A stretch of 41,916 nt of DNA from Psammoneis japonica (GCA_008632985.1 QPGO01000226.1:62001-103916); one strand, 5' to 3'; numbered from the stretch's first letter, positions 1 through 41,872 are shown. The notes: generated from the letters alone by a model not told the origin. Translations and numbers: made by a program.

Positions 1-417
1 TGTGGCGCTGGCTCTGTCGTCAAATCCGGTCTCTCGAAAACACAAAGCCCAGAACGCATTTCAAAATGGCAGGTTGTCAAGATTCTTGCAAAAGTGCTCA
101 AGCAACCCAGGAAGTGACCGAGAGCATCCATGGTGTTGAGACGATTGCCTCAGGGCTCGACGGGATGCCGGAGGGGAGGGGGGTTGCGACAAAAGCCGAA
201 AGAGCTCTGGAGGTGTGGGTGGTGCAAGCGGGGGTTGCAGCCATTTGTTCTTGTCGATTCATGGGTCACCAGGGGAGGCATTGGCCCCATCCATTTTGGC
301 CATGAAAGCGGTGCAATGGTTGCGCAGGGCTGAGAGACAATCAGAACACTTGTGGTTTTGTTGTTGTCTTCGTGAGTGAGAATGCAATGACGGACCGCAA
401 TGACCCTTTTTGTCGTT
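1..417. other. TpA-free decayed tract (CpG retained), probably the edge of a mutated repeat or heterochromatic zone
   Basis: No TA dinucleotide from 1 to 417 on manual reading (first TA at 418-419); CpG still frequent; no credible ORF; ends at an imperfect hairpin 400-430 followed by AT-rich DNA. Confidence 0.6.
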
Positions 418-609
418 TAAGGGGGGTCATCCCCGCGTTTATCCTAAAATTACCGTTGCATTTGAATAAGGTTTTTTATAGTGTTTATTTTTGAATACAA
501 GAATTGTTCATAGTCACACCCGATCGCGCACGAAAACGAGAACCATCAGCACCGCGATCGAAGCACGACGATGATGACAATCATCGATGTTTCTCAAAAA
601 CGTAGTTTG

Positions 610-9603: not shown

Positions 9604-9779
9604 TTTGGTTCCCAAAAAGATCGCGCCTTTTGGCATCACGTGGTTCACCTCAAGTCGCGCGAAGCGCGTTCAACGGACGGACGGACGGACAACATAGCGT
9701 CTCGTGCGCACGCGCGCGTGCGTCTTGTCGTCATCCACCACTGTCTGTGCACAAACGCAGCTACAAACACGATCGAGTG

Positions 9780-11350
9780 CCCTCACAAAGAAATCCCGCA
9801 ATGGAGAAAGGTGACCACGAATGGTTGGAATTCACCACAGCTTTGGCAATGTTGTGCTCAGGTCAAAAGGTTGTGAAAGAACACTGGGCTCCTGAGCCTC
9901 TGCAAGAACGATGATTTGCTTGGTGCAGCAGTGCCCGCGGCAGCGATGTTTTGTGCAAATGGCACACACAGGTGCTGCAGTGTGGTGTGCAGTGGGGTGA
10001 GAAGTTTCAGTGATTCAAAGCACGCCCAAAGGCAAATGGTTGCTGGAGTGTTCCGCAGAGGACAGAGGACAAGTGTGTGAAAAAGACACAGAGAGCCAGG
10101 ATGAGCTGCCAGGGAAGCGGGTCAAAAGGAAGGCAGCATGGGAGGATGACAAACAAGGAACAAACTTTCTGCAGAGATTGCAAAAAGAATTGGAAATTCA
10201 ATCAGCTTCAGCTGGATGCCAGACAAAGAGAGAGTGTGACTGCCCCCACCAAGGGAGCCTGTGTGCACTTTAGGGCATTGAGACACAAAGCTGCACGCTG
10301 CTGCACTGACCTCAGCACCAGCCAGGGGGTTCTTGGAGCTGGGGATGTGGAGGACTTGTGCCATGGCTCAGGTTGCAGCACATGCACAATTTTGCTGGAG
10401 AACTTTCTGTCAGTTTGTGCTCCACTCGCCGCTGCTCCCAGCCACAGATTGCAAAGGTGCGAAGGGGAGAAACAGAGCGGCGCATCTGCTCTTGGCATTT
10501 CTGCTCTGTTGACAATGACAAGCAACCAAAATGTGAGTGAGGTTGGACTGGCCTCCCACTTGTCAGGCAACCTCCAGCTCTGGGTGGGACCTTGAAATGC
10601 TGTGCTGTCACATGTTCATGCCTGGCATGTCAAAAATGCACAAAAGACTGTGCACAGCCACAAACACTTTTTTCAGCAATTTTGTGGTGCCATTTTCACT
10701 TTCTAAATGCCAACTTGTGAACATCTTTCTCCCCAGCTTGTTGGAACATTGGGGTGAGAGGCAGTTTTTGTGGGACAGAGAGAGACAACATTGCAGCAAA
10801 AGATGCACTGATGATCGTGGATTGCATGGTTGCTGATGATTGTGAGTTGTGTGGCAAATTTGTGTTGTAACTCAGGTTGAGTTCTGGGTCTGCACTCACT
10901 TTTTAGCTTCTGCACCCAGTTGACATGATGACAGCAGTTGACAGCATTGGAAATGTGTTTGCAAGCCATTTGGTGAGTTTGGGGTGTTGGTGCAACCAAG
11001 CATGCACCTGTCGGCAAGCCATGAGATGCTCCAAGACACAGTTGCACTTTTCAATGTCTTTTTCAGTGGTGACAGCTCCAGCCGATGCTTGGAAATGACA
11101 TCATTCTTGTGCTCTGCATGTCTCACTTCCTGTCAGCAGAGATTTGACAGTGCTGATTGAGCGATGGTGAGCAGTTTGAAAATTTGCAAAAATAAATGGG
11201 CACCACAGAGTGCTGGCTGCACCGCAAACGTTTCTGAGTTTATGGCAAGGTGCCTGAACCCTCACTCCCACACCAAACTCGTGATGCTCAAGAGATGCCG
11301 AGTTGTGACGATGAAATTGTAAAACGCCATTTTGCATGTCCACATCGACT
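9780..11350. other. Decayed zone depleted of both CpG and TpA
   Basis: No TA between 9764 and 10270, very few after that; CpG sparse; TG/CA-rich; ORFs are Cys/His/Gln/Trp-rich and uninterpretable. Confidence 0.75.
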
Positions 11351-15241: not shown

Positions 15242-15434
15242 CCCTGCAGCACTGAGCACCCTGCACGCACAGGGCACAGGCGCAATGAGCAATGAGGCCT
15301 TGAATGAGGCAACCTGAAACCAAGCGACGGCATAAAGAGTGCTTCGAAAGCTCGCTAAAAAGTCATCTGTAAGGAGAATCTGATAAGTAAACTTCGTCGG
15401 CAATTTGGCATCGACTACTTCTTCGGCAGAGGTA

Positions 15435-16952: not shown

Positions 16953-18608
16953 AAATCACACTGGGCAACGCTCCGTACGCATTATGCAGCAGATAAAAAG
17001 AAGAGCTCATCTGTCAAGAGAGCCGCCAGATAGGAATGAGAAGCTTCGTGGAGTCTTGAAAGCGGATGTTCAGGTATTGAGTATGTCGTGCGTGGTACTG
17101 CAATCCATTTTAGTGCATGCCGGTACAGTATGTAGCACCCAACAAGAATGACATCAACAAATCTCCTACGCTTGATCCCCGAGAACAAAACTCTTATCAT
17201 CACTGACGTATCGGCGTGCTCGACTGCTCGAACCGTAAAGGCATCCAACTCGAAGAAGAAGAGGAGGAGGAAGAAGCTGGTGAGTGTTTTGCAGCTGGGT
17301 TAAAAATCAAATTTTGACCGTCGTAGAATCGGTGTCAGTTGCAAAAAACAAAACTCACTTTTTTTCAATTTCCCTGCATGATGGAGGTTCCAAATAGTAT
17401 CATTCCATGACCCCTTCCCTGTAAGCAGTAAATGCACCGGGAGACCAACATCGGGTTGTCCGTTCACATGTGGTATTGTGTGGTCATGTTCTCACACGTG
17501 TTTGCTTAGCGTTGTCTCTTCATGTAGATCCGCTAAGACGTCTCTTGGATGGTCTCACCGAAGATCAAAAGCAAACCATACTTCATCTGCTGGTGACTCC
17601 CGGTGATTTACCTAATGCGAGGGCACTCTGCGGAGTTCAACTCCAGGTGTGGATTGGCGACAGAGGTGCGGGGGCGTTTGTGAAAGCTTTCCGATCAAGT
17701 TCTATTGAACTACCACCGTGAAGTTGATGAAACGGTTTCAGATTTGTTCAGTGAGAGCCACGATGGTCGCCTTCGGAGTGAACGTCCAGATGCTGGACAC
17801 CCTCGCCTGTCTAATGGAGCATCTGCCGCTCTGTCTCAGGGCGATGAGGTCAACGGGATGCGTCCTAGCAATAATGTCTCTGCGACAGGTGCTGCCGCTC
17901 GAAGTGTAGCGACAGAAGCTACCGCCGGGAGTGTAGATTCCTATCCTAGTGATGAGACGCCTGGCAATGGAGTGCCAAGGCGTTCATAGATGATCCTTAG
18001 CAATGTGATGAGCTGTTCCGTTGATTTATCACGTTCCCGTATTTCGTGACTACACTCATACTCGAATATTATTCCTCACTAATAGCACAACACTATATGA
18101 TTCATGGTTTATTGTTCTTCGTCAACAATACAGTACCGTCGTCCGTGCGAGTAACGCCTGAGTACCGGCAGGTTCGCTCTCTTGTTAGGCATTTCTGAAT
18201 TCGCAAGTTAGAGTGGACAGTAATGAAAAGTAAAAGCTGTATGGTGCTCGAGAGACCAAAATGTGAAATATGTTCAAGCCCTTTGTTACATCACTCTACT
18301 CATGATACGCCGGATTCTATCCACCACAACCAGCCATGTTGTGCTCTTAGTCCCTTTGCCATGTTGGCAGCTGTGACTTGGTGAGCCGCAAACACCACCG
18401 ACTTCTCCTTTAGTTCAACTATTTCAAGTGACTGACGGGGTGACGGACAACTCGTTCGACTTTTCTTTCTATACATCATACGTACCGACGCCCACCAAAC
18501 TCGAAATTGAAGTGCATGTTGATTAGGGCAAAACTTGGACCTATTAGAACTTACGTGCAGCCACACCAGCACATGAAGGCATATTCCATACCTTTTATGT
18601 GATACCTT

Positions 18609-21586
18609 CTACGCTACAGTAGAGACGCACCCCAGAAGTCTTCGCAGCTTCTGAATGGTTCGCAGCTGATCATTCATAACCGGTGTCGCATAACGCGGTC
18701 GCCTGTTTTTGACCTGCAACAACCAAAATTTCTCGAAGATATCTAAAACTTGCAGCGTTCGCTGCCTCACACTGTTGGGCACCATGTCAATTGCGAATCC
18801 GTCAACGTCAAACACATTGTTCAAATAACTGACGCTCTCAACAATGGCGTCACTGTTGTAGCCCTTAAAATCTTCCAAATACTTCTCGTCTTGTTGCGAT
18901 AGAAGAGCTCTTCTCTTCTCTTCAGCTTCCGGCGGTAGAAGGGAATATCCCCTTCGAATCCTGACATCCTCATAATGTTTTCCGTAACGAACGAAAACTT
19001 CCCTTTCCGTTGTTCCATCAGCAGGGATCTCGAGCTTTTCGTTGGCTTCACCCGCCAGCAGGTAATGGAGGCTGCCTTCTGGGTCGTGTCTAGCATGTAT
19101 CCACGCCTTTTGGCCTCTACATGGTTCGTTCACATACACCGGAATGTGTTTGCGAGCAATGTCATGTGCTTCACCAGTGAAGTCGTCACTGACGTCGAAA
19201 TGGTGTCTTCGGTTGGAGCTTCGAAACAGTATTCTTCGCACGCATGGAATGCAAGTAATTCTTCAAGTAAAATACATTTGTTGTCAATTCGTCCTTGTCT
19301 CGAAAGGGTGCGTACACTCCCAAGTCTAGATGCTCCCCCTCGCGGAGGACGAAGTGAGGTGCTGCTCTGTTTCTGGCGGTGCTTGGATCGAGGCGTGTCA
19401 CCTTGAGGAAGACGCCATTTCCAGCATTCGGTATGGACGATTGTTTCGTTGTTAGAGTCAGTGAACACCCTCTAAAAATAACAGTGAGCTTCGGCAGTGC
19501 GACGCCACTCCTTGTTTCCACCACTTCCTCCTTGCGCATTTCCGGCGTCAACCATGTCCAACATTGGATGGATTGATCATTGACCGAGAAACGATTCGCT
19601 TTGTGTGGTGTGGAACAAACTTGCGTTCGTACAGAGGCATCCACCGCATGCCACATCCTTCGTAACTTTTTTCCTAGAGGCACGACCAAGCGATCGAATT
19701 TAGCCGTGGAGTTTACCAAGGCCCGAGAATCCTGCTGGTACGTGATGACATACTTGTGAGCCTCCTCGTCATCTTCTTCATCACCGCCATCGAATTCCCG
19801 ATCAGTAATTGTGCCATACAGAACCTTTACTTTCCCTTCAACGTCGTGCCACGTCTGACAAACGCCTTTGCCAATAAGCTCGTCAGTTTCTTTTAGATTA
19901 CTGTTCGCACTCGTTGAATCAAAGTCCCCACGTGGCGACGAAACGCCTGAATTGGCACTTTTCATTCGAGCTCTCCTTGTCATTGGTGGTGATGGAGGCT
20001 CTCGCATATAGAGCGCTCTGTATTCTTGCACGCTATAGACGAGGTGGCCTTCTACATTTTCATCAATGGTGCCATCCTCTTCAAACTGAACCTAGAAGAC
20101 ATGGATGCAACAAAAGGCGGCACTTGTGATGAGATAGATGGTCCATCGTCTGATTATCCTATTTTGAAGAATGTTTCCACGCACCGTGTATAGGACATGG
20201 CCAAATGCCCTTGGTTTCTTCTCTATTATCGATCCCCAATAACGTTGGCCGTCTCTGCATGAGCTGTAGACTCGAGACCCAACGTCCTTCGATAAATCGG
20301 CAGAGTGACTTGCAACGGAAATATCTGATCGATGTTCCTCTCCATCTGATTTCAGGCGAGGCTTCTTGCTCCGCCTCTGCGAATCAGTTTCATCCGAAGA
20401 GTGACTTTCGTCCGACGAGTGACTTCATCCGACGAGTGACTTTCATCCGACGAGTGACTTTCATCCGAACTCTTTTCAAAGTCTGTTTCATCCACGGTTC
20501 TGCCCATCCATTTCCGAGCAGTCTGCCTAGTTTTGCACTTCCTCTTCTCGACCAGCTCGTTCTTGCTGCTCTGCAATGACGCTGTGGGACGAGCGCACGT
20601 AACCCGTTTCCGAGCAGTCTGTTTGGTTTTGTTGCACATCTTCTGGCCAGTTGCAGAAGCTGGAGATGGCATCTCGACCAGCTCGTTCTTGCTGCTCTGC
20701 AATGACGCTGTGGGACGAGCGCACGTAACCCGTTTCCGAGCAGTCTGTTTGGTTTTGTTGTGCATCTTCTGGCCAGTTGCAGAGGCTTGAGATGGCATCT
20801 CGACCAGCTCATTGTTGCTGCTCTGCAGTGACGCTGTGGAACGAGCGAAGCAAGTCAATTTCCGAGCAGTCTGTTTGGTTTTGTTCTTCATCTTTTTGAT
20901 TTTCGGGCCAGCTGCAGAAGCTGGAGGTGGCACCTCGACCACCACGTTGCTGCTGCTCGGCAGTGACGTTCCGACCTTATCACTCTCAACTTTGGAGGCA
21001 CGAGAGAATGCGCTGACTTGCTCGCCACGATTTGGGAGTGACGCCATCGTAGAGACACGAGTTTCGCTGCAATCCTCAGTCGACCCAATGCCATTTCCTG
21101 CTGGGCTTGCGCTTTTATGTTCACTTGCTGCGACTTCGGAAACGGTTCTTTCCTGCCGTTGGCCATCTTCAGTTCTTGTAATTTCTTCTTCTTCGTTCAA
21201 GCGCCGCTTTTCTCGCTCAAGATTCTGCTCCAGTTCCCTGGCGATGTAATAGAAAGTCTCGTTATTGCCTCTGCTGGCCTTGGCTGTTCTTGTGGCTTGC
21301 AAAGCTCGTCTGAGAACCTCCGGATCCACATCGCGATATTTTTTACTAACCCGCTTCAATATCCTGATGGCGTACTTCTTTGTTCGGCTGTTTTCAGCAG
21401 CTGTCGATCCACAGTGGACGTGAACACTGACAGTCTCTGTTCCGCAGCCGACTTGTCAAATGTGCAGTGGGGAACACTGTCGCCCAACGGTTTGTCGCAA
21501 ACGACACATTGTTTCTCCCTTATTGGCCACCTCTCCCATATTGGCCACCCGGTTGACTTTATTGCAGTTTGCTTGGTTTTTGCCAT
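18609..21586 (-). CDS. Chromatin-type protein: histone H3-tail mimic motifs + two Tudor-like domains + SET-like domain (intron 20092-20184; several 1-nt frameshifts)
   Basis: ATG 21586 gives MAKTKQTAIKSTG, then CxxC...HC; T[KR]QTARK at 20859-20879, 20733-20753, 20607-20627 and 20511-20531; Tudor VGSRVYSSCRDGQRYWGSIIEK...LYT|VQFEEDGTIDENV assembled across a GT-AG intron; second Tudor-like LIGKGVCQTW...LYGTITD...KYVITY; SET-like motifs SSIPNAGNGVF, YVNEP, EVFVRYGKHY; stop at 18609. Frameshifts near 21383, 20424 and 19250-19200. Confidence 0.75.
20390..20470. repeat. 18-bp coding tandem repeat (SSDESH) x ~4.5
   Basis: tcatccgacgagtgactt units; the unit at 20408-20424 is 17 nt, which causes the frameshift. 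Confidence 0.85.
20547..20970. repeat. 126-bp (42-aa) coding tandem repeat, each unit carrying a TKQTARK motif
   Basis: Units start at 20547, 20673, 20799 and (partial) 20934; peptide NKTKQTARKRVTCARPTASLQSSKNELVEMPSPASATGQKM. Confidence 0.9.
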
Positions 21587-24500
21587 GCTGCGACAGACAC
21601 TGGTAGCTTGCTGCCGCTGGTCTTGCTTTTTCAAGTGAAGAGAGAAAAGTCAAGATGTCGCCGTCTTCGTCTCAGGAGGATCTGAAAAAGTCACGAACAG
21701 ACAAAGTAGTGCAGCAATGAAGGAGTGCTTGTAATGCAACACTCGATCGCCTCGCGCCTCGACAGGCTAAAATCGCTACAGTAATCGAACGGAAAAGTGT
21801 GCTCAGTGCGGCAGACGTCAAGTCTGTCCAGCGTGCGTTCACCGAATCTGGCCGTAACCCTCAAACGAACTGATCGACACAATCTTTCAGTGCATGTTCT
21901 AACACCTGCACAAGATGATTCTTTGGCCAGCACCTGGCTGGAGCCCCCCCCCCCCCCCCTGTCTGGCCGCGAGAAAAAAACAGAGAAAGCAAAACAAAAC
22001 CCAAAATCTGTTGTTGAGGTGCTGCTGCACTTCCAGCACCCCACAGCCCCAGCAGCAACAAGCTGACCCGCACCCCCAGTGCACCTGAGTGCCGCAGGGG
22101 GGTTTGGCGGTTGGCCTTGCCACACCAAAGAAACCAGAGATTGTGCAAGTGCCCCTCACAGCCATCCACTTTGCCTTGCAAATGCTTGACCAAAACATTG
22201 GTGTCTCACCATTGCCACTCAACTCTGCAGCCTGTGTGTCGAGGAGCAAGCAAGATGCTCACCCATGGAGCCAAGCAATTTGGGTCAATCTTTTGCCAAG
22301 CAGTCACCAGAATTTAAGCAAATGGCCTTGACTTCTGCTCCTGCATCATCATGTTGTGCCAATTTCCCAATTTCTGCAGGTCCTGCCACTGTGACCAAAC
22401 AAACCTGCCAACTGCAGCAGCTCAATCTAAACAGCACATGTCTTCCACAGAGTTCAAGGATGTTGCAGCAATGTGCAGGTGCTCCCTCTGTGCTTCATTC
22501 CACTGAGAAAAAACCAGCCATTGAAGAGGTGCCATCAACCAAAAAATCTGCTCTTGCCAGGGACCAACAAACATGGCAAGTGTGCACCGTGATGAATCTC
22601 TTCAGCGTGCAGCATTTAACCATGAAGCCAAGAAAGACTGGCCAGCAGAAGTCAGTTGCAAAGAGAAAAAGATGTGTTGATGTCATTGCATTTCTTGCAC
22701 AGGCCCAGCAGGAAGGTGCCATGCCATGCTTCATTGCGAGGGAATTGAAGGACATGGTTTCTGTCCTCCATGGGACGCAGACAATGAATGCACCCATCTG
22801 GACAGTTTTGGACACCCAGCAAACCATCTTGTTGGTGGGCAGCAGATCTTGAGCCAACTTGACTGTGCTGACTTTCCTGCAAATGTTCAAAAAGACATGA
22901 GTTTTGGATGAACTGGCCACCAGTCAATGGAGTTGAACACTTCGTCAGTCCATCTACATTTCTCTTTCATGCACTGGATGAGGGCCAGACTGGATGCTTC
23001 ATGTTAGAAAACAGACTTGAATTTGGAGCCAATGGGGAAGCCTTGAACCATGAGGCCTGTGGAGCAATGTGGCATCCCATGTGCTGCTGAAGCATTGCAT
23101 CAAACTTCTGTTGATGTTGACCTGTGATTCCATTCACATGGACATTCACATTTGCCAGGAGAGACAGCAGTTCACATGGGACTGAAATTTCTTGGTGTCC
23201 TCCCTGGTGAAGGCCCTGAGGATGAGGAGTCAGAAATGCACTCTCAACCAAATGAAAATTCTCATTCAAAATGTCCCAAAATCACCAACCAACACTGAAT
23301 TGGCAACATGTGACATCTACAACAGCAATCAAGGTTGGCTCCAAAGGAGCTGTCTTCATCAGAAATGGGGAGGGGTGCCTTAAGATTCACTATGTTTTGG
23401 ATGAACGCAGAGGCATCACACAGTGCATTTTCCATGCCCAGTGGAAAACCTGTCTGACAACATTCCACCACTCTGACCACAAAGGCATGCCACATGCTTC
23501 AGCATGGCATGAAGAAAGACAAAAAAATGCAGGGCTGGTGCAGTCAACTGAGATCAATCCATCAATGGCAAGCATCCACCCAAAAGTGGCTCAAGATTGT
23601 GGAGTGTTTGAAGCTTTTCCCAGCCATGGCTGGGAGTCATGATCAGCAAGAAGCAGCAAAAGCAAAAACCAGAGCATGCTCTGATCTCTGATGCACCATC
23701 ACAAACTGGGGTGCTCACATTGAGCACACTGCACTTTAAAAAGAGAAAAATGCCAAGTGCTCAAAACCCACGTGCACTCACAAAAACATCAAAGTGTGCA
23801 CAGAACCCTCCACTGCCTGCAGAGTGCTCTCCTGGCAAGCACATGAACACTGCACTGGTTGTTCCAACCATTCGTTTTATTGTGCATTTCAAATGCTCAC
23901 ACAAGACAAAATGACCAGCTCTGATTCAATCACAGCACAGCAACAGCTCACACGGGTGGTGGGGTGGGCCAGAAAAAGATGTGACGCCACCCCCAACATC
24001 ATTGCCAACAATCAAGATGACACCAACCATGCCTCAATTTGTTTTGACACTGGATGATGCTCCCCCCAGTGCTAGAAACAAGCTTGCCTCATGTGCCATG
24101 AACTCAAGCTTAATCTACAGAGGTTGTGATGGTGGTCAACAATGCTGCCTTCTTGCATTTTTCAAGCCCCCTCCCCACACACATCAAATGCCAGCACTGA
24201 ATTTCCCACATCCTTGGCAAGTGCATGAGAGGACAGCAACAAAGCCAAAAGCATGTGCTTTGATCTCCAAGGCACAATGGCAGCACAGCTGTTTTGATTG
24301 AAATGCAGCTGAAAAAGCAAAAGGACCTGGAATGTGGGAGTTGGACTTAAATGGGTGCATTTTGAGTGTGCTGAAACAACAATGTCAACTGCCTTGGTGG
24401 GAACATCTTAATCCTCCTTTTGTCAACAATGCACCTCAAGAAGAATTGCAAGAAAATGAAAATGACAGCAACAACAACATGACAAGTCTCTCAGCTGCCA

Positions 24501-26956
24501 GCAACAAGACTTGGTCTGCTTGGTCACCATGATGCAGCCAGCAGAACGTGCAAGCAAACCTCTGTGTTTGCTGATTTGTTGCCACCAATGAAAGGCCTGA
24601 TGAGCAAAATGTGCAGTTGCCATTCCCAGACAAATTTGACCCAGTTGGCTGACAAGACAGGCATTTTGCAGCCAACAAGGAAGCCTTTGACCTGGACCGC
24701 TGCTTGGGCAACTTGCAAGTTGAAAAGATGGTTGCACACCAGCATGCTGGGCTATGCCACATGTGTGCAACACAGTGTTGGGTTGAAGAACACTGCAATT
24801 GACACCAGTGGTGCTAAAGTGCTTCAGGCCATTTAGAGCTCATTCAGAGAAACTCAAAATTGTTGAGTGAAATCCAAATTCACAATTTCCACTTTTCATG
24901 ATTTGTTCTGCTTTTGTTTGCACTCATTCTTTGAGCACAGCATGTGCGCAGGTGCTTGGTGGGACTTCACTGCCCTGAGTTTGCAGGAACACATGGCGGT
25001 GTCCATGTTGATGGCAGCAGCTCAGTCAAGAGTCTTCATTCTTGAATCTCTTTGCAGTTTAGCCTTGATCAACTGTTGGAGCATCTGGATCATGGGAGAC
25101 ACAGGAGATCTGGATGTGTTGAAGAGAAGATGTTTTGTGGCAATGGCCACACATTGGCTGCAGTTTCCTGATGGCTTTTGGACACAGACAGAGATGCACT
25201 GCCCCTGTTGTTGACAGCATCATTCATTGCACCATGATCATTTCACCCTTCCCAAGTCTCTTTGCACATGCATCAGCACCACTGCCAACCTGGGGTGCTG
25301 TTGCAAGTGGAAAAAGGTGTGCATGTGCCCTGTTTCTTGGCTTTGCTGGCCAAAAGAATGGGCAGCACAGGCAACTTCTTGCTCAGCACTCACATGTGCT
25401 GTTGCACATCAAAGCATGAGTGACCTGTGTTGCTTGCCTTGGTTGTCCTCTTGTCACTCTCATGATTGCCAGTGCTCAGCTGGTTTTGTCAGTGATTCTC
25501 TGTTTTCCTTTCTAAAGAAGCACTCACCTCTGGGTCCTTTTTGAGCTTTAGCATGCTGAGCCACACTCAAAACTTTGGTGATTCTAATCCAAGCGTTTTG
25601 ACCACTGTCATTTAAGAAACTTTTGCCAAATTGGCTTTGCTTGGAGCTTCCTGGTTTTGGGGGGCAAGAGAAGCTGATGTGTGAGGAAACAAATTTCAAC
25701 CCAGCACTGCAAGTCTGTGCATGTTTGTCTGCATTTCTTGACTGTTGACTTGTGGTGGCCATTTTCAAAATTTGTTTGGTGCTGGTGACATTGACTGGAT
25801 TCTTTAAGATTTTTGGCAGGAAAGTCTGTGGCAGGATTCAGCATCCATTGATGTGGCACCCCCGGCCTCTTGAGCAATGGGCAAAGTTGCCATGCTGCTG
25901 CAGTTGTTGTGCATTCTGGCAATGTCTGGCATGGGCAGGGGGTTGCCACCCACTGGCACCAGGGTCCATTTGTTGACAGAGAGAGTGAACCCTGGGGTTG
26001 TGTTCACAATTTGTGTTTGGCAGAAGAGGCTTGCAAAACAAACACATGGAGGTGATTGTTCCCTCTGTTTTTGCCCCAGCCCACAAAACATTTGCTGGAT
26101 GGGTTTGCCACATTGACAGCGCTTTTGCCTGTGAACAGAAATGAAATGAGCTGGTGTGCCAGCTGGTGTTTGTGAAGATTTTTTTGGCAAAAACTCTGCT
26201 GCCATTCAGGGTGGGTGAGATGCCATTTCACCTGACTTGGCTGGCACAGCTCCTTCCAAAGATTTTGCTGATTGTTCAAAGCCACCCACCAAGCCATCAG
26301 ATGAGGATGCCCCCTTGTCCAAATGAAGTTTCCAGTGACATTGTGGAGCTCACAAACACAGCAAAATGCTTGCTTGGCCCCAACATGAAAGCCAATCACA
26401 GTGACAACACCATGGTCCAAAAACAGGCCCAAAATCCAACTCAACCTGCAACAACCACACACACACAGTTGGCCATGGAAAAAGCTCTGAAGAGAGTTTT
26501 CTGCAGAGTCAATTCTTTTGAAGAGTGCCTGCAATTGTAATTTTGTTGAAGCCCACCCAAATGATCCTGCTGTTGTCAACATGCTGGGTGCTGCTGGACT
26601 TCCCGAGAGCACCCTTTTCAAAGACATTGGCTTGCCACACAAGAGATGGCTGGCAACCCCTTGAGTTGCCCATGCAGAGAGCAAATCCTTCACAAGTGCT
26701 TGGTCACCTGTTTGCTGGCAGATGAGTTTTTCACTTTGGCAAAAAGCCCAAGTGATGTGGGTGGTTCTTGTGCACTCCACAGTGGGCTCATTTGCCAACA
26801 AGTGCAGCGGGACAAAACATGGCAGATGCAGCCTTTTGCCATCCCATGAACAGACAGATGCCATGATGTGGCTGGAGATGGGCAGAGTGCATGTCAGTGG
26901 GATCACATTTGCAAGGCATGCACTGTTCATGACGAACAAATGGGCAGGTTGGATTG

Positions 26957-27597
26957 AGGTTAGAACAAGGGGCAGGCATCCTTGCCAGGTGGTGCACAAC
27001 CCTTGTTTGGAAACTGCTGGCATTTTTCTGGCACTGGAGTTGCTGCCAGTTTTGCTTCCAACTGCCAGGTGCACTGCTCCTTTTCTGCAAATAAAATCAA
27101 CACAGTGTGTGAAGGTTTGTGTGTTGTCACTGGATTTGATCATCCCTTCCATCCCATGGACAGACAGATGCTGTCATGTGACTGGCAAGTGATGGATGAA
27201 CACCTCTGCTCTCTAGCTAGCCAGCAGCAGAGTGCAAGCCACTGGCTGCTCTCTAGCAGCAGGACCCTCTCTAGCAGTGGCCAGCTGCTGCCAGCCAGCA
27301 GAGCCACTCCAGCTCTAGCAGCAGAGCAGACTCCATCATGTGCGTGTGATGCGATCATGCTTGCAATGTACAGACCATTCATGCAGCAGGCAAGCAAATT
27401 GAAAATGTGTAAATGGCAACAAACTGTAGGTTGGAACAAGGGGCATCCTCACCAGGCAGTGCACTGTTCCTTGTTTGGAAACTGCTGGCATTTTTCTAGC
27501 ACTGGAGTTGCTGCCGGTTTTGCTTCCGTTTGCCAGGTGCACTGGCCGTGCGTTCCACTGCTCCTTTTCTGCAAATGCAATCAACCCAGTGTGTGAA
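26957..27597. repeat. Dispersed direct duplication (~160 bp; 26957-27113 and 27428-27597)
   Basis: Both copies share cttgtttggaaactgctggcatttttct.gcactggagttgctgcc.gttttgcttcc...tgccaggtgcactg...ctccttttctgcaaat. Confidence 0.85.
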
Positions 27598-27789
27598 CAA
27601 GAGAAGTGCTCATGCATTCGCAATTGAAATTGCTCCTGTTCCTGTGTGTTCAATCTGCTGCTAGAGTGCCATGTGCCCCAGCACAAATCTTGGTGGCATG
27701 CCTTCACAGCAGTTGTAAAGAACACCACACCCACCACACAGGCACAATCCCAACTCTTGTTCTGCAGATGGCTTGGTGTCAGCCATCGT

Positions 27790-29451
27790 GTCTGCAGGAA
27801 CAGACCTGGTGACAACCATGACCACATGGTGCAATCTACCTGACATCATGCAAACAATGCCGTCCATCTTCTCCTTGTAGAAACGCACAGTTTTGACTTG
27901 ACGGGGGTGAGGTTCATCATCAAAAACACCATGTCCCAATGCACCCGCATCTCCACATCCCCATGAGCAGACACAGGTTCCATCCTGCAAGACACAATGC
28001 AACTGCTTGTCACCACAGGCAATTTGCAAGAACACATGGTGCTGGCCCGCAGGCAATTCCGGAAAGGCAATGCAAATTGGCAGCTGCTCCATGGATCCAA
28101 ATGCACATGTTTCCCAAGACAATCCCAGCTGCCCATGGTCTGAATGTCCAAAGCCACAAATGGCTTGGCCCAACAAGTCAAGACACAATGTGTGAGAATT
28201 GCCACATGCCACCTTGATGATGTCCTTGCCATCCATGGTGGGGACGTGTGTGAGTTTGCAATGGTTCACCTCATCACCAAGACCCAGCTGCCTGTAATTG
28301 TTGAATCCGCTGGAGGGCAATGTCACCGGCATTGCAGCAAGCAGTCACCATGGGATGAGACCGTCCACATGCAACATTCACAACGCACTTTTTGGGCCTC
28401 AAGGCTTGATCCTCTCACACAAAGGGATGAGGCATCAAAAAGATCTCATCAAAGACTTGCATCTTGCTCTTGTGCTCAGGTGCAACAACACTTTGTGGCA
28501 CTCTTGAACGCAATTCTGGCATTTCTTAATGGCTCTCTGGTGCTCTTCTTCAACTTCCTCCACCGACTTGTTGATGTCATGTTTGCATTTAGGCTTGTCA
28601 GGCAAGTGCGGCTTCTTGGGCATGAGCTTTGCAAAGTCCACCATGGTTTCACCAGCTTCGTTGACCATTGACCGCAGTGGCCAATTCCTTGTCGCCTGCC
28701 AATTCTCCACAAATCTCCATGCCAAAAGCATTGATGGCATTGCCATCTCCCATGATTGCAGCACAAAAGCTTTCTCCACAAGCCACTGATGCCACCGGAT
28801 CACCCTTGAATTGATGCAACAGCACCGGTGTCAAGTTGGTCTTGCAAATGGCCTTGGCAACACCCTCATCCGTCCCATTGTGCGGAGTGGGGGGATCATG
28901 GTAAAAGGCTCCACTTTGATCCCTGCAACCACCACAGGAAAACGCCGTTCCATCAATGGCAACAAAGACTGAGTGAGCTCCACCAACAGCCACCTGAATC
29001 AAGCAATGGTCCTGCATTTGGCAAATGGCCGATTTGAATCCGGCAACAATTCTGGGCTTGTGTTCAAAAGCCTCACGGCATTTTGTGGAGATTTTCCACA
29101 TCTCAATTGGCCTTCATCATTGCATCCCCAACTGTGCGCCAGGCCCTTGGAAGAAATGGCAACATTGTGAATGGACCCGCATGTGACGAAATCAAAATTG
29201 TCTTCCAATCCCCTGACAATGCGCGGACAGGAAATGGTGTCGACATGAGAGAATCCCAATTGAGACAGTTTGTTGCTTCCAAATGTCATGACTTGACCAA
29301 TGGGACAGTCACACAAGAGCTTGGCAGCAGTGCACAGGGACTTGTAACAGTGGAGTTCATGCATAAACCCAACCTCATGCAGACAGGCATTGTTGCTCAC
29401 CAGCAACAGACAATGGACGCCCCTGTTTCTTCAGTTTGTTCTTGTCACCAT
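27790..29451 (-). pseudogene. RCC1-family beta-propeller pseudogene
   Basis: Successive RCC1 repeats in broken frames: VMTFGSNKLSQLG, VTCGSIHNVAISSKGLAHSWGCNDEGQL, QVAVGGAHSVFV, SVACGESFCAA, GFNNYRQLGLG, KVACGNSHTLCL...FGHSDHGQLGL, VCSWGCGDAGALGHG. Probable start MVTRTN*RNRG at 29451. Confidence 0.85.
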
Positions 29452-29839
29452 TAATTTGTTCTGCAGATTGATCCAAGACACTGCGATGCACTTGTTGAAA
29501 CTGAGCAATGCGTTCTGCTTGCTCCAAAGGCAGAGGGCAAACCGCAATGATGGCTCAACAAGCACGAGTGGTCGTTGGTGAAGCATGACAGCATCATCTT
29601 TGTCTCAAGTGTCTTCCTTGTCCATTCTGTGCATCTTGTCTGTCATGGTTTGGAACACACACACGGGATGCACTGGCCTCTAGAGAGAGTGAGACAGCAA
29701 CAAGAGCATCAAATGCACAGTTCAACGACAGCAACAGCAAGAGCAACGCATCAACAATCTGGTGTCTGATCAATGGACATCATGTTGAACGCATTGATGA
29801 TGATGTTTTCCGATTTTTGAAATTGGCGCCAATCTGCTG

Positions 29840-31330
29840 ATGACACAGAAAGCAACGTGGGTAGACTCCTCTAGCTTTTGTGCCAGCAAGGTGAGCAAAC
29901 CGCAAAACAAAGGGCACAACGGTTGTGTGGAAGGCCGTGACGGACAGATGGATGGATCGTTCCTCAAAATTAACACAAGCGCCCAATGGCAATCAAAACT
30001 AAAAACAATGAAGTGCATGGTCAATCTCTGCAGAATGGCCCAACGACACCCACTGTGGCACCAATGTCACACGTGTTTCTGCCCCCAGCTCCTCAATCGA
30101 CTGTTGGTGGAAGATCCCACAGCACAAAAAATGGTGGGGCCCTTCAGCCCCAACGACCAAGACACTGACATGGTCACGCGTGCCCACTGGGCCATCATGC
30201 AATGCATGGCTGAGGATTCATGAAGCCATGGCAAACAAAGGCATGGATGTTGATTGTTGCCCTCTTGGTGAGGCGGCTTGCTGCGCCGGGTGGCTGCACA
30301 ATGTCCCAAGACTCACAGAGTCAATGTTCCCAAGCCCGCAGGTGTGCACTTGTTTTCCACAATCTGCCAGGCCCAATGATTGTGCTGCTCACAGCAGGCA
30401 TGCAGCAGATTGCCACGGGCCTCAATGCCCTGGTTATGAACATGTGCATGGTGCACCCCCAAGCAACAAGAAGACCAGCAGCAATGTCGGGGTTGCAAGA
30501 AGAGCCAGGTTGTGCTGGCCAACTGCTGTGGAGCCAACTTGCAGAAGTCTGTGCACTGCTAACAAGTTGTGCAAGAGCAGGACCTGTGATGAGCAGCCAC
30601 CCTGCAGCATGTAAATGCTGTGGGTGTGCCTGCCCACAGTGATGAGCGTTGACTCTTTTGGCGCAGATCACCCAGAGACATGACCAATGAGAGACAGTGG
30701 TCTGTGCCTCCCACCTGCATGAGTGGGGAGAGGTTTCTGTGATCTGCTTTTGCATCACTTCAGTGATGCAAAAGCAGCACGTGAGTCTGCAAACACTGTC
30801 TGAGCTGCAGCAAGCTCAATCCTTTCTTTCATCAATGTTGCGCTGCACTTTGATGCTGCAAGATGCATGACAGCACATTTTTGCCACCTTTTGTCCACAA
30901 TTTTCTTGTGTTATCCATGCTCTGCCAATGCTGCGGCATCACCATGAACTTGTGGTGGTGCCAGCAACACTCCTGCTTCTTCTGTGAGTGTTTCCATGTT
31001 TGTGCCAGGCCAAGATCAACCACAGCCTGCTCAGCTTCTTGCTTGTCAGAGGCTCCTTCCTTCTAGAGTACAAGCAGCTCTCTTGCCATCATGGCAGTCT
31101 CCTGCCCCCATGTGGCTGCTTCAGCTTGTGAGATTTGATCCACTTGTTTTGACTCCACCAGTTGACAATCAGCAGCTCAAACTTTGTGGCAGCATTGCTT
31201 TCTTTCCACAGGAGTTGTGTGGTGAGAGTTGCTTTCAAAGTTGGCAACAAATTAAACACCCATCAAGCACACAGGGCTGTGCAAAGTGCATGGCTTTTGC
31301 CAGCTTTCAAGTGTTTTGTTCTTGCTGAAA
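29840..31330 (+). mobile_element. Possible decayed retroelement ORF1/gag-like relic
   Basis: LLVEDPTAQKMVGPFSPNDQDTDMVTR...AWLRIHEAMANKGMDVDC recalls repetitive ORFs of diatom retroelements (recollection only); no RT or recombinase motif seen. Confidence 0.25.
30744..30777. repeat. Perfect 16-bp inverted repeat with 2-nt loop
   Basis: CTGCTTTTGCATCACT-TC-AGTGATGCAAAAGCAG. Confidence 0.9.
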
Positions 31331-32056
31331 AAAGCCTTGCAATCAAGCAGTGCCTGCTCCAACATTGAGCACCCTCTGGCAGAGAAACAGCGCCAAGGAC
31401 CTTGGCAAGTTGGCCCTTTCCACTTTTCCTGCACAGTTGTCATTGCCATGAATTGTTTGCCACAGGCACCCCTGTGCAGCTGGAGCAGAAAAAAACCTGT
31501 GCATGGCCAGTGCAGCATGTTGGCACTCAAGGATGTTTACAATCAAGGAGCTGTCCTGCTCACGTAAGCAGATGCCAAAGTCATGAGATTTGGTGCAACT
31601 TGTCATGACTTTGCACACCAGTTGATGGATGCTCATTGTCAAAAATGCCAAGACAACAAGAGCATGTGTTGCACTGTTGAACAATGTGAGGGATGACTGG
31701 ATTGTGCACAGGGCGCTTCTTGTGGGGTCTGCTGCTGTGGAAAGAAAACCCATCCACGGCTTTTGAAACATCGTGTGATTGTTGTTGAACCAGCAAGTCA
31801 ATGTTGCCCAAAGGAAATCCTGTTGGGCTTCCTATGCCACTCAACACACTCACCTTGGTTGCTTGCAGTGTGGCTGTTGGTTGCCCAAAAGTTGTCAAAC
31901 AAACTTTAAATGAGCAATGCTGCAGACACCAGGCAGCAACGAGCAACAAACTGTGCAAACCAAATGATCCACTTCAAAGAGTGAGATGAAACTGAAGGTG
32001 AGAGATTGGCAACAATGAAATCTCACTTGAAAAGAGTTGCTCAGTGAGCCACGTTA

Positions 32057-32412
32057 GGAGCCACAGCATGTTTTCTTCAATGCATCCCAGTTCTTTGCAT
32101 GTCCGGTGATCCAGATGTTCCAACAGACATGCACTCATGAACAGGAGGCACAAACTAAATGTGCACTTGTCATTGTGCTTTGTGTGATGTCAGCATTTTG
32201 TTTGGCTGTGTGGAACTCAATTTCTGGTCTCCTGGGAGCCACAGCATCTTTTCTTCAATGCATCTGGGTTCTTTGCATGTCCAGTGATCCAGATGTTCCA
32301 ACAGAGATGCACTCATGAACAGGAGGCAACAACCAAACGTGCACCTGTCATTGTGCTTTGTGCAATGTCAGCATTTTGTTTTGCTGTGTGGAGCTCATTT
32401 TCTGGTCTCCTG
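32057..32412. repeat. Tandem duplication, 2 x 178 bp
   Basis: Units 32057-32234 and 32235-32412 both run ggagccacagcat...tttctggtctcctg. Confidence 0.9.
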
Positions 32413-32717
32413 TTGTGCAGTTATGTTTCACCAACAAGTGCAGGACTTGGCACAAGTCTCTGCGGGCATCAGTCCGCACTGCCACAGGCCCATCAATGGC
32501 GCGCGTGACAGAATGCCGGTAGAAATGCAGCAGGAGGTTGGTCACAGAATTCAATTTTTTGGGTTTTTTAGTTTAGTACGATTGAGCTGTTTTGGACTTT
32601 TTCACAAAAAGTGTCCTACTTGGAGTTGCTACTTTTTTTCCAAGCGCATCTCTCTCGTTTCATGGTCTGCTTCGTAGAATAAGAACATGGCTGGAAACGG
32701 CAAGTCACAACCAGAGG

Positions 32718-40810: not shown

Positions 40811-41202
40811 GATGACTTGATGGGTGTGGATGAATGTCACACAATACTCCACAAAATCCGACTCAACAGTATGATACTCTCTTTGGGTATTGCCTTTTGT
40901 GTTAGTTGTGCTCTGCAGATTTGAGATTTGTTGCCAAACCGCTGAAGCGACGCCCAAGCACATATTTTCAAAAAGCACAGATTTTCAATGCTTCGGCTAA
41001 AACTGGGTTTAGTTTTTGCCAGAATTCGGCAAATTATGCGATCTGTGACGACACTGTCTCACATTTTTTGGCGCGGTCCAGGCAGGTCCGGCGCGCGCGG
41101 TATGTAGATCCTACTTTTATGTACGTATTTTTTCACCACGCATGCTGTTCCAGATTTTCCGTTCCAGAACTAACAGACAGATGCCAGGTTGATTCAAAAA
41201 TA

Positions 41203-41872
41203 GAAAGAGATGATGATTGTTCAAGGGCATGATGTGCTTGCCATGACCCAGACAGAGCCCTGCACTGGTGGCGCTTTGCTCGTCACTCCTCTTGCGGTGA
41301 TCTGGCCAGTTTGGCAGCAAATGGCGGCACACGTGGTGTTGGGCTGGGCAGGTTTTGCTGGCACAGGTGCTTGCCAACCTGTTCCCACCAAGAGGGAAGG
41401 CAGCATTCCCAAGCTGGAGCCCCCCGGGCATGATGGCCAAGCAAGGGCCAGAGGGCGGGAGAGAGGCGGGAGCAACTGAATTTGTCCACCGCTGGACTTG
41501 CTGCTGAGCCATTTGGAAGATGAGTGAAAGCAGCCAATGGACAAAGAAAAACAAATGGTTGCTTGTGACGTCACCTCCTCTGATGGGCTCAAGTCCTGGG
41601 CGGGACTCCGTGTGACATTGGGCGCCCGCAGAATTCTGCGTGCGAGCTCCGCAGCAAATTCATCAAGCAATGAAAACACAAATGATCGCCAACAGAAAAA
41701 GAGGCAATTTTGCGAACGCATCTCCTCCTTCACACTTGCAGTGCATCGTCAACAGTTTGCCCGGGCGCGTTCTGCAGACATTGGAGAACACACCCAGAGC
41801 ATTTTCATTTTCATGAATGTTGAAAATGGAAAGCCTTTGGCTTCACAAAATGGGGAGCACGAAACAATTTCA
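41203..41872. other. TpA-free decayed tract (CpG partly retained)
   Basis: No TA dinucleotide over about 670 bp between the TAs at 41201-41202 and 41873-41874. Confidence 0.65.

Follow-up and report, generated by a model that had tools for sequence, protein, structure and literature searches.

How could a stretch of diatom DNA lose TpA together with CpG and yet keep the base composition of its surroundings? The question is raised by a window of 41,916 nucleotides from Psammoneis japonica (GCA_008632985.1, QPGO01000226.1:62001-103916), in which a tract of 10.6 kb, lying between the transcribed ends of two neighboring genes, is purged of both dinucleotides and enriched in TpG and CpA (main island, 21880..32495; this and the other compositional tracts below carry no strand assignment).

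Composition and extent of the depleted DNA

Within the block 21890-32490, the observed/expected (o/e) ratios are 0.18 for CpG, 0.10 for TpA, 1.92 for TpG, and 1.80 for CpA, against 0.92, 0.47, 1.25, and 1.25 in the left flank and 0.94, 0.46, 1.14, and 1.22 in the right flank, G+C content being the same throughout (0.488 in the block, 0.483 and 0.499 in the left and right flanks). This confirms a preliminary description of the block as lacking both CpG and TpA. Non-ORF DNA of the flanks (6.8 kb) has a TpA o/e of 0.60 and the ORFs one of 0.45, so that the block does not equal its non-coding surroundings but lies 5–6 times below them. The dinucleotide signature is real and far beyond chance. When flank frequencies are used as a proxy for ancestral ones, the island holds 113 CG for 605 expected, 67 TA for 336, 1203 TG for 819, and 1256 CA for 775, hence a CG+TA deficit of 761 facing a TG+CA surplus of 865; this near-balance and a purine/pyrimidine skeleton that is barely altered (YR fraction 0.249 vs. 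0.239) are what transitions would leave behind. That the loss is specific to TpA, with other A:T sites spared, is supported: base composition and the o/e ratios of AA, AG, and GG are those of the flanks (ApA 1.20 vs. 1.16), and GA is lower in the island (0.89 vs. 1.17).

The borders are sharp to about 50 bp, CG and TA being dense up to ~21875 and again from ~32500. A run of 16 C (21944..21959, plus strand) lies 65 bp inside the left edge, and a repeated family begins near 21990, as judged from the loose ends of contigs built from a public sequencing run (X1). The letters of the island are exactly matched by 1–3 kb contigs of this run at a word depth of 32–37, which counts against a base-calling artefact, X1 being possibly the assembly's own source and not independent of it.

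The main island is accompanied by three smaller patches in the window. A second island with the same signature occupies 9763..11192 (CpG o/e 0.17-0.26, TpA 0.03-0.04, TG/CA 1.7-2.2); a patch of 671 bp at 41202..41872 is free of TA (0 occurrences; TG 1.61, CA 1.55) and retains half of its CpG (o/e 0.53), a run of at least 670 bp having a probability of ~1e-8 if TAY-type sites were as dense as in the flanks; and a TAY-free patch, cut by the window start, covers 1..439 (TpA o/e 0.04, CpG 0.72, CA 1.59). The four patches differ in CpG depth, and about one-third of the window bears the mark. With thresholds of TpA <0.25 and TG/CA >1.5 in 500-bp windows, the signature is present in 48 of 166 windows here and in none of the 902 drawn from 236.5 kb of sequence at 30 related diatom loci.

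Sequence rule and polarity of the TpA loss

Loss of TpA obeys a rule of three letters read on each strand, TAY>TGY (equivalently RTA>RCA). Relative to the flanks, the survival of TpA is 0.735 at YTAR sites, which have the motif on neither strand (40 vs. 154), 0.139 where the motif lies on one strand (25 vs. 510), and 0.020 at RTAY sites, which have it on both (2 vs. 286), the square of 0.139 being 0.019 (chi-square p = 2e-18 for motif-dependent survival). The rule also holds against the non-ORF flank (0.51, 0.10, and 0.014 for none, one, and both strands), under a control for the purine/pyrimidine skeleton, in all four sub-blocks of the main island, and in the second island; TTAA and CTAG are retained at flank level. 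The products fit the same rule, since TGC/GCA and TGT/ACA are in the top four enriched trinucleotides, with CAC/GTG and CAG/CTG ranking between them, and since CA is the dinucleotide gained at R-YR-R sites (0.57 vs. 0.37 for TG) and TG the one gained at Y-YR-Y sites (0.53 vs. 0.41 for CA). A per-strand motif with two-hit kinetics points to a mutational process; neither selection nor a foreign base composition predicts such a thing.

As for the direction of change, polarity and rates are read from composition, some six Tyr columns, and 37 plus ~18 paralogue mismatches, and these weakly suggest a change from TpA to TpG/CpA. The Tyr columns come from the only recognizable gene in the island, a decayed RCC1-repeat gene on the minus strand (27664..29430) detected by Pfam RCC1 in three frames (29002-29430, 28652-29113, and 27664-28344; E-values 2.7e-24, 3.9e-05, and 1.6e-10). 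Its aligned residues comprise 0.9% Tyr and 7.2% Cys, and at six Tyr-rich columns of the alignment the island has C, C, H, M, F, and Y, so that three of the six read Cys (TGY, two columns) or His (CAY, one). A G precedes the His codon and a pyrimidine both Cys codons, as it also precedes all five surviving Tyr codons. The pair-level Y>C excess in this frame is 13-fold, a value that recounts the same few sites, with no excess of I>V/T or F>L/S. Just downstream on the same strand, a stop-free frame of 389 codons (26007..27173) may be what remains of old coding sequence; a frame of this length arose in 4 of 300 Markov simulations, and the frame itself had no Pfam match, no match among 1.84 billion representatives, and none in an atlas search.

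The paralogue mismatches come from internal duplicates, two pairs of which had already been put forward as differing at both CG and TA and are confirmed to exist. These are a tandem duplication (2 x 178 bp, 91% identity; 32057..32412, plus strand; units 32057-32234 and 32235-32412), whose unit is one of a family represented many times in the rest of the genome, given its high summed depth and the loose ends at 31783-32300 in X1 contigs, and a dispersed pair (26957..27597, plus strand; 26957-27113 and 27428-27597). An incomplete third copy of the 178-bp unit, in inverted orientation, was also recovered by internal comparison (25073..25134, minus strand); over 62 bp, 14-15 transitions and 2-4 transversions separate it from the tandem units, and 36 bp agree perfectly in purine/pyrimidine code. 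The three duplicate pairs, a small sample, show 37 mismatches, 25 of them transitions, with four CG<->TG/CA and four TA<->TG/CA exchanges; the printed alignments additionally contain four TG<->CA doublets (8 positions), and paralogue transitions occur outside CpG and TpA too.

CpG loss partly independent of TpA loss

The depletion of CpG is paired with an excess of TpG/CpA, as methylation-driven decay predicts, and with an o/e of 0.18 in a patch without sign of expression the island resembles methylated silent DNA undergoing CpG decay; deamination of 5-methylcytosine (5mC) nevertheless leaves the TpA loss unexplained. The two losses also differ in their course along the island. The sub-block 27890..30889 retains 65 CpG in 3 kb with undiminished TpA loss, whereas the first two 3-kb sub-blocks hold 18 apiece and the final 1.6 kb holds 12. 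General CpG survival is accordingly 0.60 in this sub-block and 0.175 in the rest of the island, a 3.4-fold difference over which TpA loss is constant, and CpG loss is thus partly separate from TpA loss. Superimposed on this general component, a TCG-specific loss factor of 0.31-0.34 applies in both parts of the island, the TCG classes resting on 25 and 3 surviving sites; the bias is absent from the second island (7, 6, 0; p = 0.5). To our knowledge, 5mC decay does not usually favor TCG.

On this basis, the account that we consider probable is that two context-specific transition processes, both confined to patches, rewrote old diatom DNA, the island being what would be left of non-coding or ex-coding sequence: a dead RCC1-repeat gene, fragments of repeat families, and anonymous sequence. 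The first process would convert the A of 5'-T-A-Y-3' into G, or on the opposite strand the T of 5'-R-T-A-3' into C, hitting each DNA strand independently and coming near completion. It would presumably be enzymatic, an ADAT2/TadA-type adenine deaminase acting on DNA and a miscoding modified thymine being the candidates, and may serve as a genome defense whose targets are silent, foreign, or repeated DNA. The second process would be a decay of CpG to TpG/CpA, with a general component of variable depth, most simply put down to 5mC deamination in methylated silent DNA, and another of uniform depth specific to 5'-TCG-3'. In diatom transposable elements, CpG methylation is described as dependent on DNMT5a (PMC9998398).

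Known hypermutation systems and rival origins

Targeted hypermutation is established as a genome defense in fungi (RIP) and in animals (APOBEC, ADAR). RIP of ascomycetes turns CpA into TpA, so that TpA rises and G+C falls, and the repeats of basidiomycetes reportedly undergo a TCG-biased hypermutation. The island is like both in displaying regional, context-specific transitions in non-genic or repeated DNA, and its TCG preference resembles the pattern said to characterize basidiomycetes. Fungal RIP is ruled out here by a TpA depleted to 0.10, a CpA enriched to 1.80, and a G+C unchanged from the flanks. Diatoms have DNMT4 enzymes related to RID (PMC9998398). An ADAR-edited retro-copy was also considered: ADAR-type A-to-I hyperediting likewise yields A>G and favors a 5' U/T (cited in bioRxiv 10.64898/2026.01.13.699255), but a retro-copy would be marked on one strand, and the candidate is ruled out by the symmetric gains of TG (1203) and CA (1256), the two-strand kinetics, and an ORF scan with no reverse transcriptase or integrase.

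The closest counterpart is provided by Bigelowiella natans, in which silent integrated viral DNA is reported to mutate ~1000-fold faster, by TpA>TpG/CpA only: of the 231 new mutations recorded in two regions of integrated viral DNA, 230 were A>G or T>C, and every GC-ward change lay at TpA; the genome holds 124 TpA-poor, CpA+TpG-rich clusters (Mettrop et al., bioRxiv 10.64898/2026.01.13.699255). The window is similar in its A:T>G:C change at TpA, giving TpG/CpA on either strand, in its discrete regions adjoining normal DNA, and in its footprint of TpA-poor, CpA+TpG-rich clusters, which are mostly unannotated in B. natans; both hosts are SAR-group algae. The two cases differ in that mutation was measured directly there, in mutation-accumulation lines, and is read here as an end-state from sequence; in that the B. 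natans regions are still TpA-rich (Rho 0.45), when the diatom island is near saturation (0.10); and in that the targets there are identified NCLDV and virophage insertions, the NCLDV region being transcriptionally silent (bioRxiv 10.64898/2026.01.13.699255), when RCC1 repeats are the sole recognizable content here. CpG loss, present in the diatom island, has 0 occurrences in the accessible B. natans text, and the 3'-pyrimidine rule is not stated in its main text. The first process that we propose may nonetheless be the one measured in B. natans. The preliminary description had posited a second, regionally confined TpA -> TpG/CpA process beside CpG decay and distinct from RIP, which the TpA specificity, TAY motif, two-hit kinetics, and composition support; the claim of a wholly unknown mutator has been overtaken by the 2026 preprint. 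TpA-targeted mutation is not new as a kind, and the present footprint looks like its occurrence in a second algal lineage, our literature search having turned up no published diatom case.

Among other origins, a single dual DNA deaminase of ADAT2/TadA type, directed by a 5' T and acting on A in TAY and on C in TCG, with 5mC decay merely adding CpG loss, seems distinctly unlikely. In its favor, the TCG-specific factor is uniform along the island like the TAY loss and unlike the general CpG loss; an ADAT2 homologue is the candidate named by the B. natans authors (bioRxiv 10.64898/2026.01.13.699255); and amphioxus BjADAT2, assayed in Escherichia coli and in vitro only, deaminates both C and A in DNA, with a cytosine motif, 5'-TCG-3', that is the CpG context most depleted in the island (PMC10354150). 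However, the adenine motif given for BjADAT2 is GAA (PMC10354150), when that of the island is TAY, the TCG counts are as small as noted above, the second island is without the bias, and a preference for particular neighboring bases, on the part of the CpG methyltransferase or of 5mC decay itself, could also give the bias.

An alternative in which the DNA arrived already purged, on a horizontally acquired or viral fragment that owed its lack of CG and TA to the donor's genome or to editing in the donor, and in which no process acted in the host, would suit the sharp edges, the lack of homologues for most of the island, and the coverage of its unique parts by contigs of one haplotype only. Giant-virus MAG proteins (Hyperionvirus, and Harvfovirus as the top match in one search) do occur among the weak RCC1 matches, but they are 29-35% identical and interspersed with eukaryotic ones, and no homologue of the remnant exceeds 35% identity, except in two short alignments, which reach 43-44% and cover 28-30% of the query. 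We regard this origin as very improbable, because the signature recurs in four separate patches of the 42 kb with unequal CpG depth, island duplicates diverged at CG/TA<->TG/CA after duplication, and viral hallmarks are missing. Indeed, 98 six-frame ORFs of at least 70 aa searched against Pfam (E<=0.001 for all, E<=0.5 for 42 of them) gave RCC1 only, without capsid, polymerase, packaging ATPase, or other NCLDV hallmark genes, and no transposon-like or viral features or relatives among viral contigs were found in the Pfam, viral-contig, and homologue searches; a giant endogenous viral element is thus not supported by the ORF scan, in which heavy mutation could mask such genes.

Little credence can likewise be given to repair as the source of the TpA loss, through an error-prone patch repair that is drawn to the T:G mismatches left by 5mC deamination and mutates TpA nearby. 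Biased repair was among the options initially raised, and CpG and TpA are lost from the same patches. Non-canonical mismatch repair carries a polymerase-eta-like A>G bias at WA, which would lower ApA, but ApA is not depleted, and TpA is lost to the same depth in stretches that largely retain CpG (27890-30889 and 41202-41872); we know of no strict 3'-pyrimidine rule in this pathway. Selection against TA and CG steps as harmful (nuclease or binding sites, DNA flexibility) is highly implausible in view of the conserved Tyr turned into Cys/His in a broken RCC1 frame, the multiplicative two-strand survival predicted by independent hits, and TTAA and CTAG at flank level. That modified bases were misread as G or T in sequencing or assembly is scarcely credible: X1 is the single run with the island, but noisy or misread long reads would not yield its exact 31-mer contigs with 0 differences, the residual TA and CG obey the motif rule, and these sites vary between paralogues.

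The two-process account matters in that A:T-directed DNA hypermutation has a single prior report, the 2026 preprint on a chlorarachniophyte, with an enzyme named as a candidate only. The window would show the apparent saturated end-state of such a process in an ecologically dominant lineage with genetically tractable model species, and it offers experimental handles in the TAY motif with its independent strand hits, the TCG bias matching the DNA motif of ADAT2, and the uncoupling of TpA and CpG loss. A broader proposal, which we hold only tentatively and as rather unlikely, is that in diatoms one 5'-T-directed dual deaminase (T-A-Y>T-G-Y, T-C-G>T-T-G) edits silent or foreign DNA strand by strand to saturation, as a defense shared by SAR algae and the same ancient system that B. 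natans shows at an early stage; mutational genome defense would then be a SAR-algal trait rather than a fungal and animal specialty. On a practical note, islands of this kind are almost without TAA and TAG stops and hence contain long false ORFs in all six frames, which leads gene finders to over-predict.

Composition and reliability of the island

The preliminary description had singled out a block at 21890..32490 as poor in both CpG and TpA, and this is confirmed here by observed/expected dinucleotide ratios and by the sharpness of its edges. Within this island (about 21880-32495), the ratios are 0.18 for CpG, 0.10 for TpA, 1.92 for TpG, and 1.80 for CpA, versus 0.92-0.94 for CpG, 0.46-0.47 for TpA, and 1.14-1.25 for TpG/CpA in the left and right flanks. 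All 1-kb bins of the block are affected (TpA 0.03-0.28), and its edges can be placed within a few tens of bases, as CG and TA are dense until about 21875 and become so again at about 32500. The island leaves the G+C content of the window (41,916 bases, G+C 48.8%, with a single N in the assembly at position 819) unaltered, at 0.488 inside versus 0.483 and 0.499 in the flanks. At the flank rate, 605 CG, 336 TA, 819 TG, and 775 CA would be expected in the island, when 113, 67, 1203, and 1256, respectively, are observed: the CG+TA loss of 761 is near the TG+CA gain of 865, and the purine/pyrimidine pattern is nearly intact (YR fraction 0.249 vs. 0.239). Such a matched loss and gain on a preserved purine/pyrimidine pattern is what is expected if transitions did the work.

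As regards the reliability of the sequence, of the 31-letter words sampled from the island, a fraction of 0.99 is present in X1, a public run whose contigs carry the island, and X1 contigs of 1-3 kb (word depth 32-37) align to it with 0 differences, which rules out that noisy long reads produced a consensus artefact; since X1 may be the assembly's own data, this match does not amount to independent confirmation. Within 17001-37000, the flanks have, next to the exact X1 haplotype (depth about 30), a second set of X1 contigs that differ at many positions (depth about 40-110), and the island's unique parts are covered by exact contigs only, at a depth of 32-37, contig depth being a weak measure. 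The island may be carried by one haplotype only, or its alleles may be more than 15% different; with regard to an empty allele, a joint spanning the whole island was absent among the 15 of 42 joints listed. The contigs of a second run labeled “DNA?”, X2, skip 133 bases at 34460-34594. This skip, which is bounded by CT..AC, corresponds to a GT..AG intron of a minus-strand gene and suggests that X2 is RNA despite its label. Both flanks are covered by X2, whose contigs are absent from 21670-32341; this blank is not taken as evidence of silence, and no RNA run is listed for the island.

Motif context and polarity of TpA loss

The TpA sites that survive in the island follow a rule that extends to the neighboring bases and that can be written TAY>TGY or, equally, RTA>RCA. 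Among the 67 survivors, 40 are YTAR sites, which carry the TAY motif on no strand (TTAA 14, CTAG 11, CTAA/TTAG 15), 25 carry it on one strand (one purine-5' or pyrimidine-3' neighbor), and 2 are RTAY sites, which carry it on both, when the flanks hold 154, 510, and 286 sites of these classes (p = 2e-18 for the class distribution, island vs. flanks). Survival, taken as island sites per base relative to the flanks, thus falls from 0.735 to 0.139 and 0.020, the last value being the square of the one-strand value (0.019); relative to flanking non-ORF DNA alone, it is 0.51, 0.10, and 0.014. ATAT, ATAC/GTAT, and TATA, of which the flanks hold 58, 159, and 35 (70 for TATA when counted on both strands), are absent from the island.

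The rule also appears in a control based on purine/pyrimidine tetramer skeletons, which transitions cannot change and which involve no assumption on base composition. There, the TA share drops from 0.17-0.18 in the flanks to 0.003 in the island for R-YR-Y skeletons and from 0.10-0.16 to 0.018 for one-sided skeletons, when Y-YR-R skeletons show 0.067 in the island versus 0.07-0.10 in the flanks. The rule recurs in four of four sub-blocks and in a second island at 9763-11192. On the side of the gains, TGC/GCA ranks first and TGT/ACA fourth by trinucleotide enrichment, CAC/GTG and CAG/CTG taking the ranks between them, and the main gain is of CA at R-YR-R sites and of TG at Y-YR-Y sites; this gain is not specific, as a CpG decay biased toward TCG pushes the same way.

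Overall, this pattern is what a three-base single-strand mutational event (TAY>TGY or RTA>RCA) would do if each strand were hit independently of the other. The TpA loss might also be ascribed to selection acting on the duplex or to an imported base composition, but neither predicts the multiplicative two-strand rule. A genome-wide neutral TpA equilibrium is rejected, since TpA in flanking non-ORF DNA is 0.60 versus 0.10 in the island and since RTAY is commoner than YTAR in the flanks, an opposite bias which implies that the generally low TpA of the genome (0.46-0.60) has a different cause. A polymerase-eta-like WA signature would lower ApA too, and ApA is unchanged in the island. An ADAR-edited retro-copy would mark one strand, when the strands of the island are marked equally and without any retro-element feature. 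Finally, a tandem or simple-repeat origin of the block is rejected, with merely three short tandem arrays in 12.5 kb. The motif rule and the strand-independent hits to which it points hence support the earlier proposal of a regionally confined TpA>TpG/CpA process, second to CpG decay.

Further evidence comes from 30 related diatom metagenome loci (236.5 kb), where none of 902 500-bp windows combines TpA<0.25 with TG/CA>1.5, versus 48 of 166 in the present window. These loci are distant, the shared gene having 53-64% protein identity over most of its length, and their similarity ends at the 3' end of the gene at 32924-40650 (minus strand), so the relatives are uninformative as to an insertion of the island.

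Direct evidence for the polarity TpA to TpG/CpA is thin, and comes from a decayed RCC1-repeat gene on the minus strand of the island, to which 45 RCC1 homologues were aligned by tblastn. Where homologues have Tyr, the aligned pairs show Cys in the island at a rate of 18.7% and His at 22.2%, versus 1.4% and 5.7% in homologue-to-homologue controls, these percentages recounting few sites, with only six columns rich in Tyr. The island residues in these six columns are C, C, H, M, F, and Y. A G precedes the His codon (CAC), and a pyrimidine precedes both Cys codons (TGT, TGC) and 5 of 5 surviving Tyr codons, contexts that fit the TAY rule. Tyr makes up 0.9% of aligned island residues versus 2.5% in the homologues, and Cys 7.2% versus 2.6%; no rise is seen in I>V/T or F>L/S.

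The internal duplicates quoted earlier for the dual signature, a tandem of 2 x 178 bp at 32057-32412 (plus strand) and a dispersed pair at 26957-27113 and 27428-27597, do exist, and their mismatches include both CG<->TG/CA and TA<->TG/CA. Three duplicate pairs total 37 mismatches, including 25 transitions, 4 of them CG<->TG/CA and 4 TA<->TG/CA. Four TG<->CA doublets, read from the printed alignments, are what would arise if one ancestral CG or TA decayed separately in the two copies. The 178-bp unit also has a third copy, inverted, which differs over 62 bases by 14-15 transitions, some of them outside CpG and TpA, and by 2-4 transversions.

CpG loss and relation to known systems

The loss of CpG depends on a 5' T: CpG survival is 0.296 when TCG is on neither strand (85 sites in the island vs. 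814 in the flanks), 0.096 when it is on one (25 vs. 741), and 0.054 when it is on both (3 vs. 158), with p = 7e-8 overall. At 27890-30889, which covers most of the RCC1 remnant, non-TCG CpG survival is 0.60 versus 0.175 elsewhere in the island, when the extra TCG factor is alike (0.31 there and 0.34 in the rest) and the TpA loss equally deep. A search of the whole window for runs free of TAY-type sites returned further patches at 1-439 (CpG observed/expected 0.72), at 9763-11192, the second island (about 0.2), and at 41202-41872 (0.53), the latter with 0 TA in 671 bases, the probability of which is about 1e-8 at flank density. TpA purging therefore goes with little, partial, or deep CpG loss. 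A dense alternating CG run of about 20 CpG in 110 bp lies at 9620-9730, directly left of the second island, such that a CpG-rich tract adjoins CpG-poor DNA. We read these patterns of CpG and TpA loss as two processes with shared targets, a uniform 5'-T-directed one and a variable general CpG decay, and CpG loss would on this basis be partly separate from TpA loss. The simplest cause of the general decay would be deamination of 5-methylcytosine; CpG methylation of diatom transposons is described as dependent on DNMT5a in the available text of one study (PMC9998398).

Among known systems, fungal RIP makes TpA and lowers G+C, the opposite of the island, where TpA is lost and G+C unchanged; we hence agree with the preliminary description that the process is distinct from RIP. 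A close match is found in the chlorarachniophyte Bigelowiella natans. According to the available text of a 2026 preprint, a silent integrated giant-virus region of 186 kb and a virophage region of 25 kb mutate about 1000-fold faster than the rest of that genome in mutation-accumulation lines, 230 of 231 changes being A>G or T>C and the GC-ward ones all falling at TpA (10.64898/2026.01.13.699255). The same text counts 124 TpA-poor, CpA+TpG-rich clusters in that genome, mostly unannotated, and its authors propose an ADAT2-type adenine deaminase (10.64898/2026.01.13.699255). Diatoms and CpG are not mentioned in this available text, nor is a third-base rule stated there, the TAY rule coming from the diatom island. 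As for the proposed enzyme, amphioxus ADAT2 deaminates both C and A in DNA, with a cytosine motif 5'-TCG-3' and an adenine motif GAA in the available text (PMC10354150); the former equals the TCG bias of the island, when the latter is unlike TAY. Literature searches turned up no report of joint TpA/CpG purging in diatoms; they covered TpA/CpG, transposable elements, repeat-induced point mutation, and endogenous viral elements. This kind of process has already been described, very recently; what is new here is the diatom lineage, the near-saturated end-state, the three-base per-strand rule, the companion TCG bias, and the partial uncoupling from CpG decay.

Contents and genomic setting

A Pfam scan (E<=0.001) of 98 six-frame stop-to-stop ORFs of at least 70 aa from both islands gave matches for three, at 29002-29430, 28652-29113, and 27664-28344, which are all minus-strand RCC1 repeats, each in a different frame (E down to 2.7e-24), and a lenient scan of 42 ORFs (E<=0.5) gave nothing credible beyond RCC1. 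No parent gene for this remnant was found in either length class; its matches, a mixture of eukaryotic proteins and giant-virus MAG proteins, are about 26-37% identical, the full-length ones not exceeding 35%, with short ones of 43-44% identity over 28-30% of the query. Just downstream lies an open frame of 389 codons, a length reached or surpassed in 4 of 300 Markov simulations; HMMER found 0 matches to it among 1.84 billion representatives, an Atlas search gave no usable match, and two scans of viral_contigs, this frame included, found no relatives of the island.

TAA and TAG are nearly absent from the island (105 on both strands vs. 487 TGA), which gives rise to long ORFs in all six frames: 48 ORFs of at least 100 aa occur in 11.5 kb, with stop-free frames of 100-389 codons (21880-32495 and the other patches). 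Most long island ORFs are probably meaningless, and gene finders would over-call genes in purged patches.

Peaks of summed depth, together with loose ends, occur at 21990, 24880-24940, about 30700-30855, and 31783-32300, and show that some segments of the island are members of families with copies elsewhere in the genome. At the island ends, a search for terminal repeats and target site duplications found no inverted repeat of at least 40 bp, and a purine/pyrimidine-coded repeat search of the island returned the known duplicates and a copy at 25099-25134, nothing else.

The island is flanked by genes and is thus intergenic. An RluA-type pseudouridine synthase gene lies at 15405-16952 (plus strand; E 2.1e-22), its best named relatives being diatoms, with about 46-47% identity to Bacillariaceae and Cylindrotheca, 42-43% to Skeletonema and Thalassiosira, and up to 60% for other matches; a flavin amine oxidase domain at 6381-7376 (plus strand; E 2.7e-20) marks another ordinary flanking gene. 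The long multi-exon gene at 32924-40650, whose 3' end lies right of the island, comprises eight ORF pieces, whose order is kept (identity 45-70%) in as many as 30 contigs from diatom metagenomes. Pfam scans (E<=0.01) of two of them, 32921-34027 and 35364-37577, gave no family match; by eye only, the C-terminal piece resembles a helicase. Rfam and tRNA scans of the window found nothing. Lastly, the purine/pyrimidine repeat search detected in-frame tandem repeats within flanking ORFs at 4785-5013 and 20546-20885, whose units measure about 75 and about 126 bp and are 86-97% identical.
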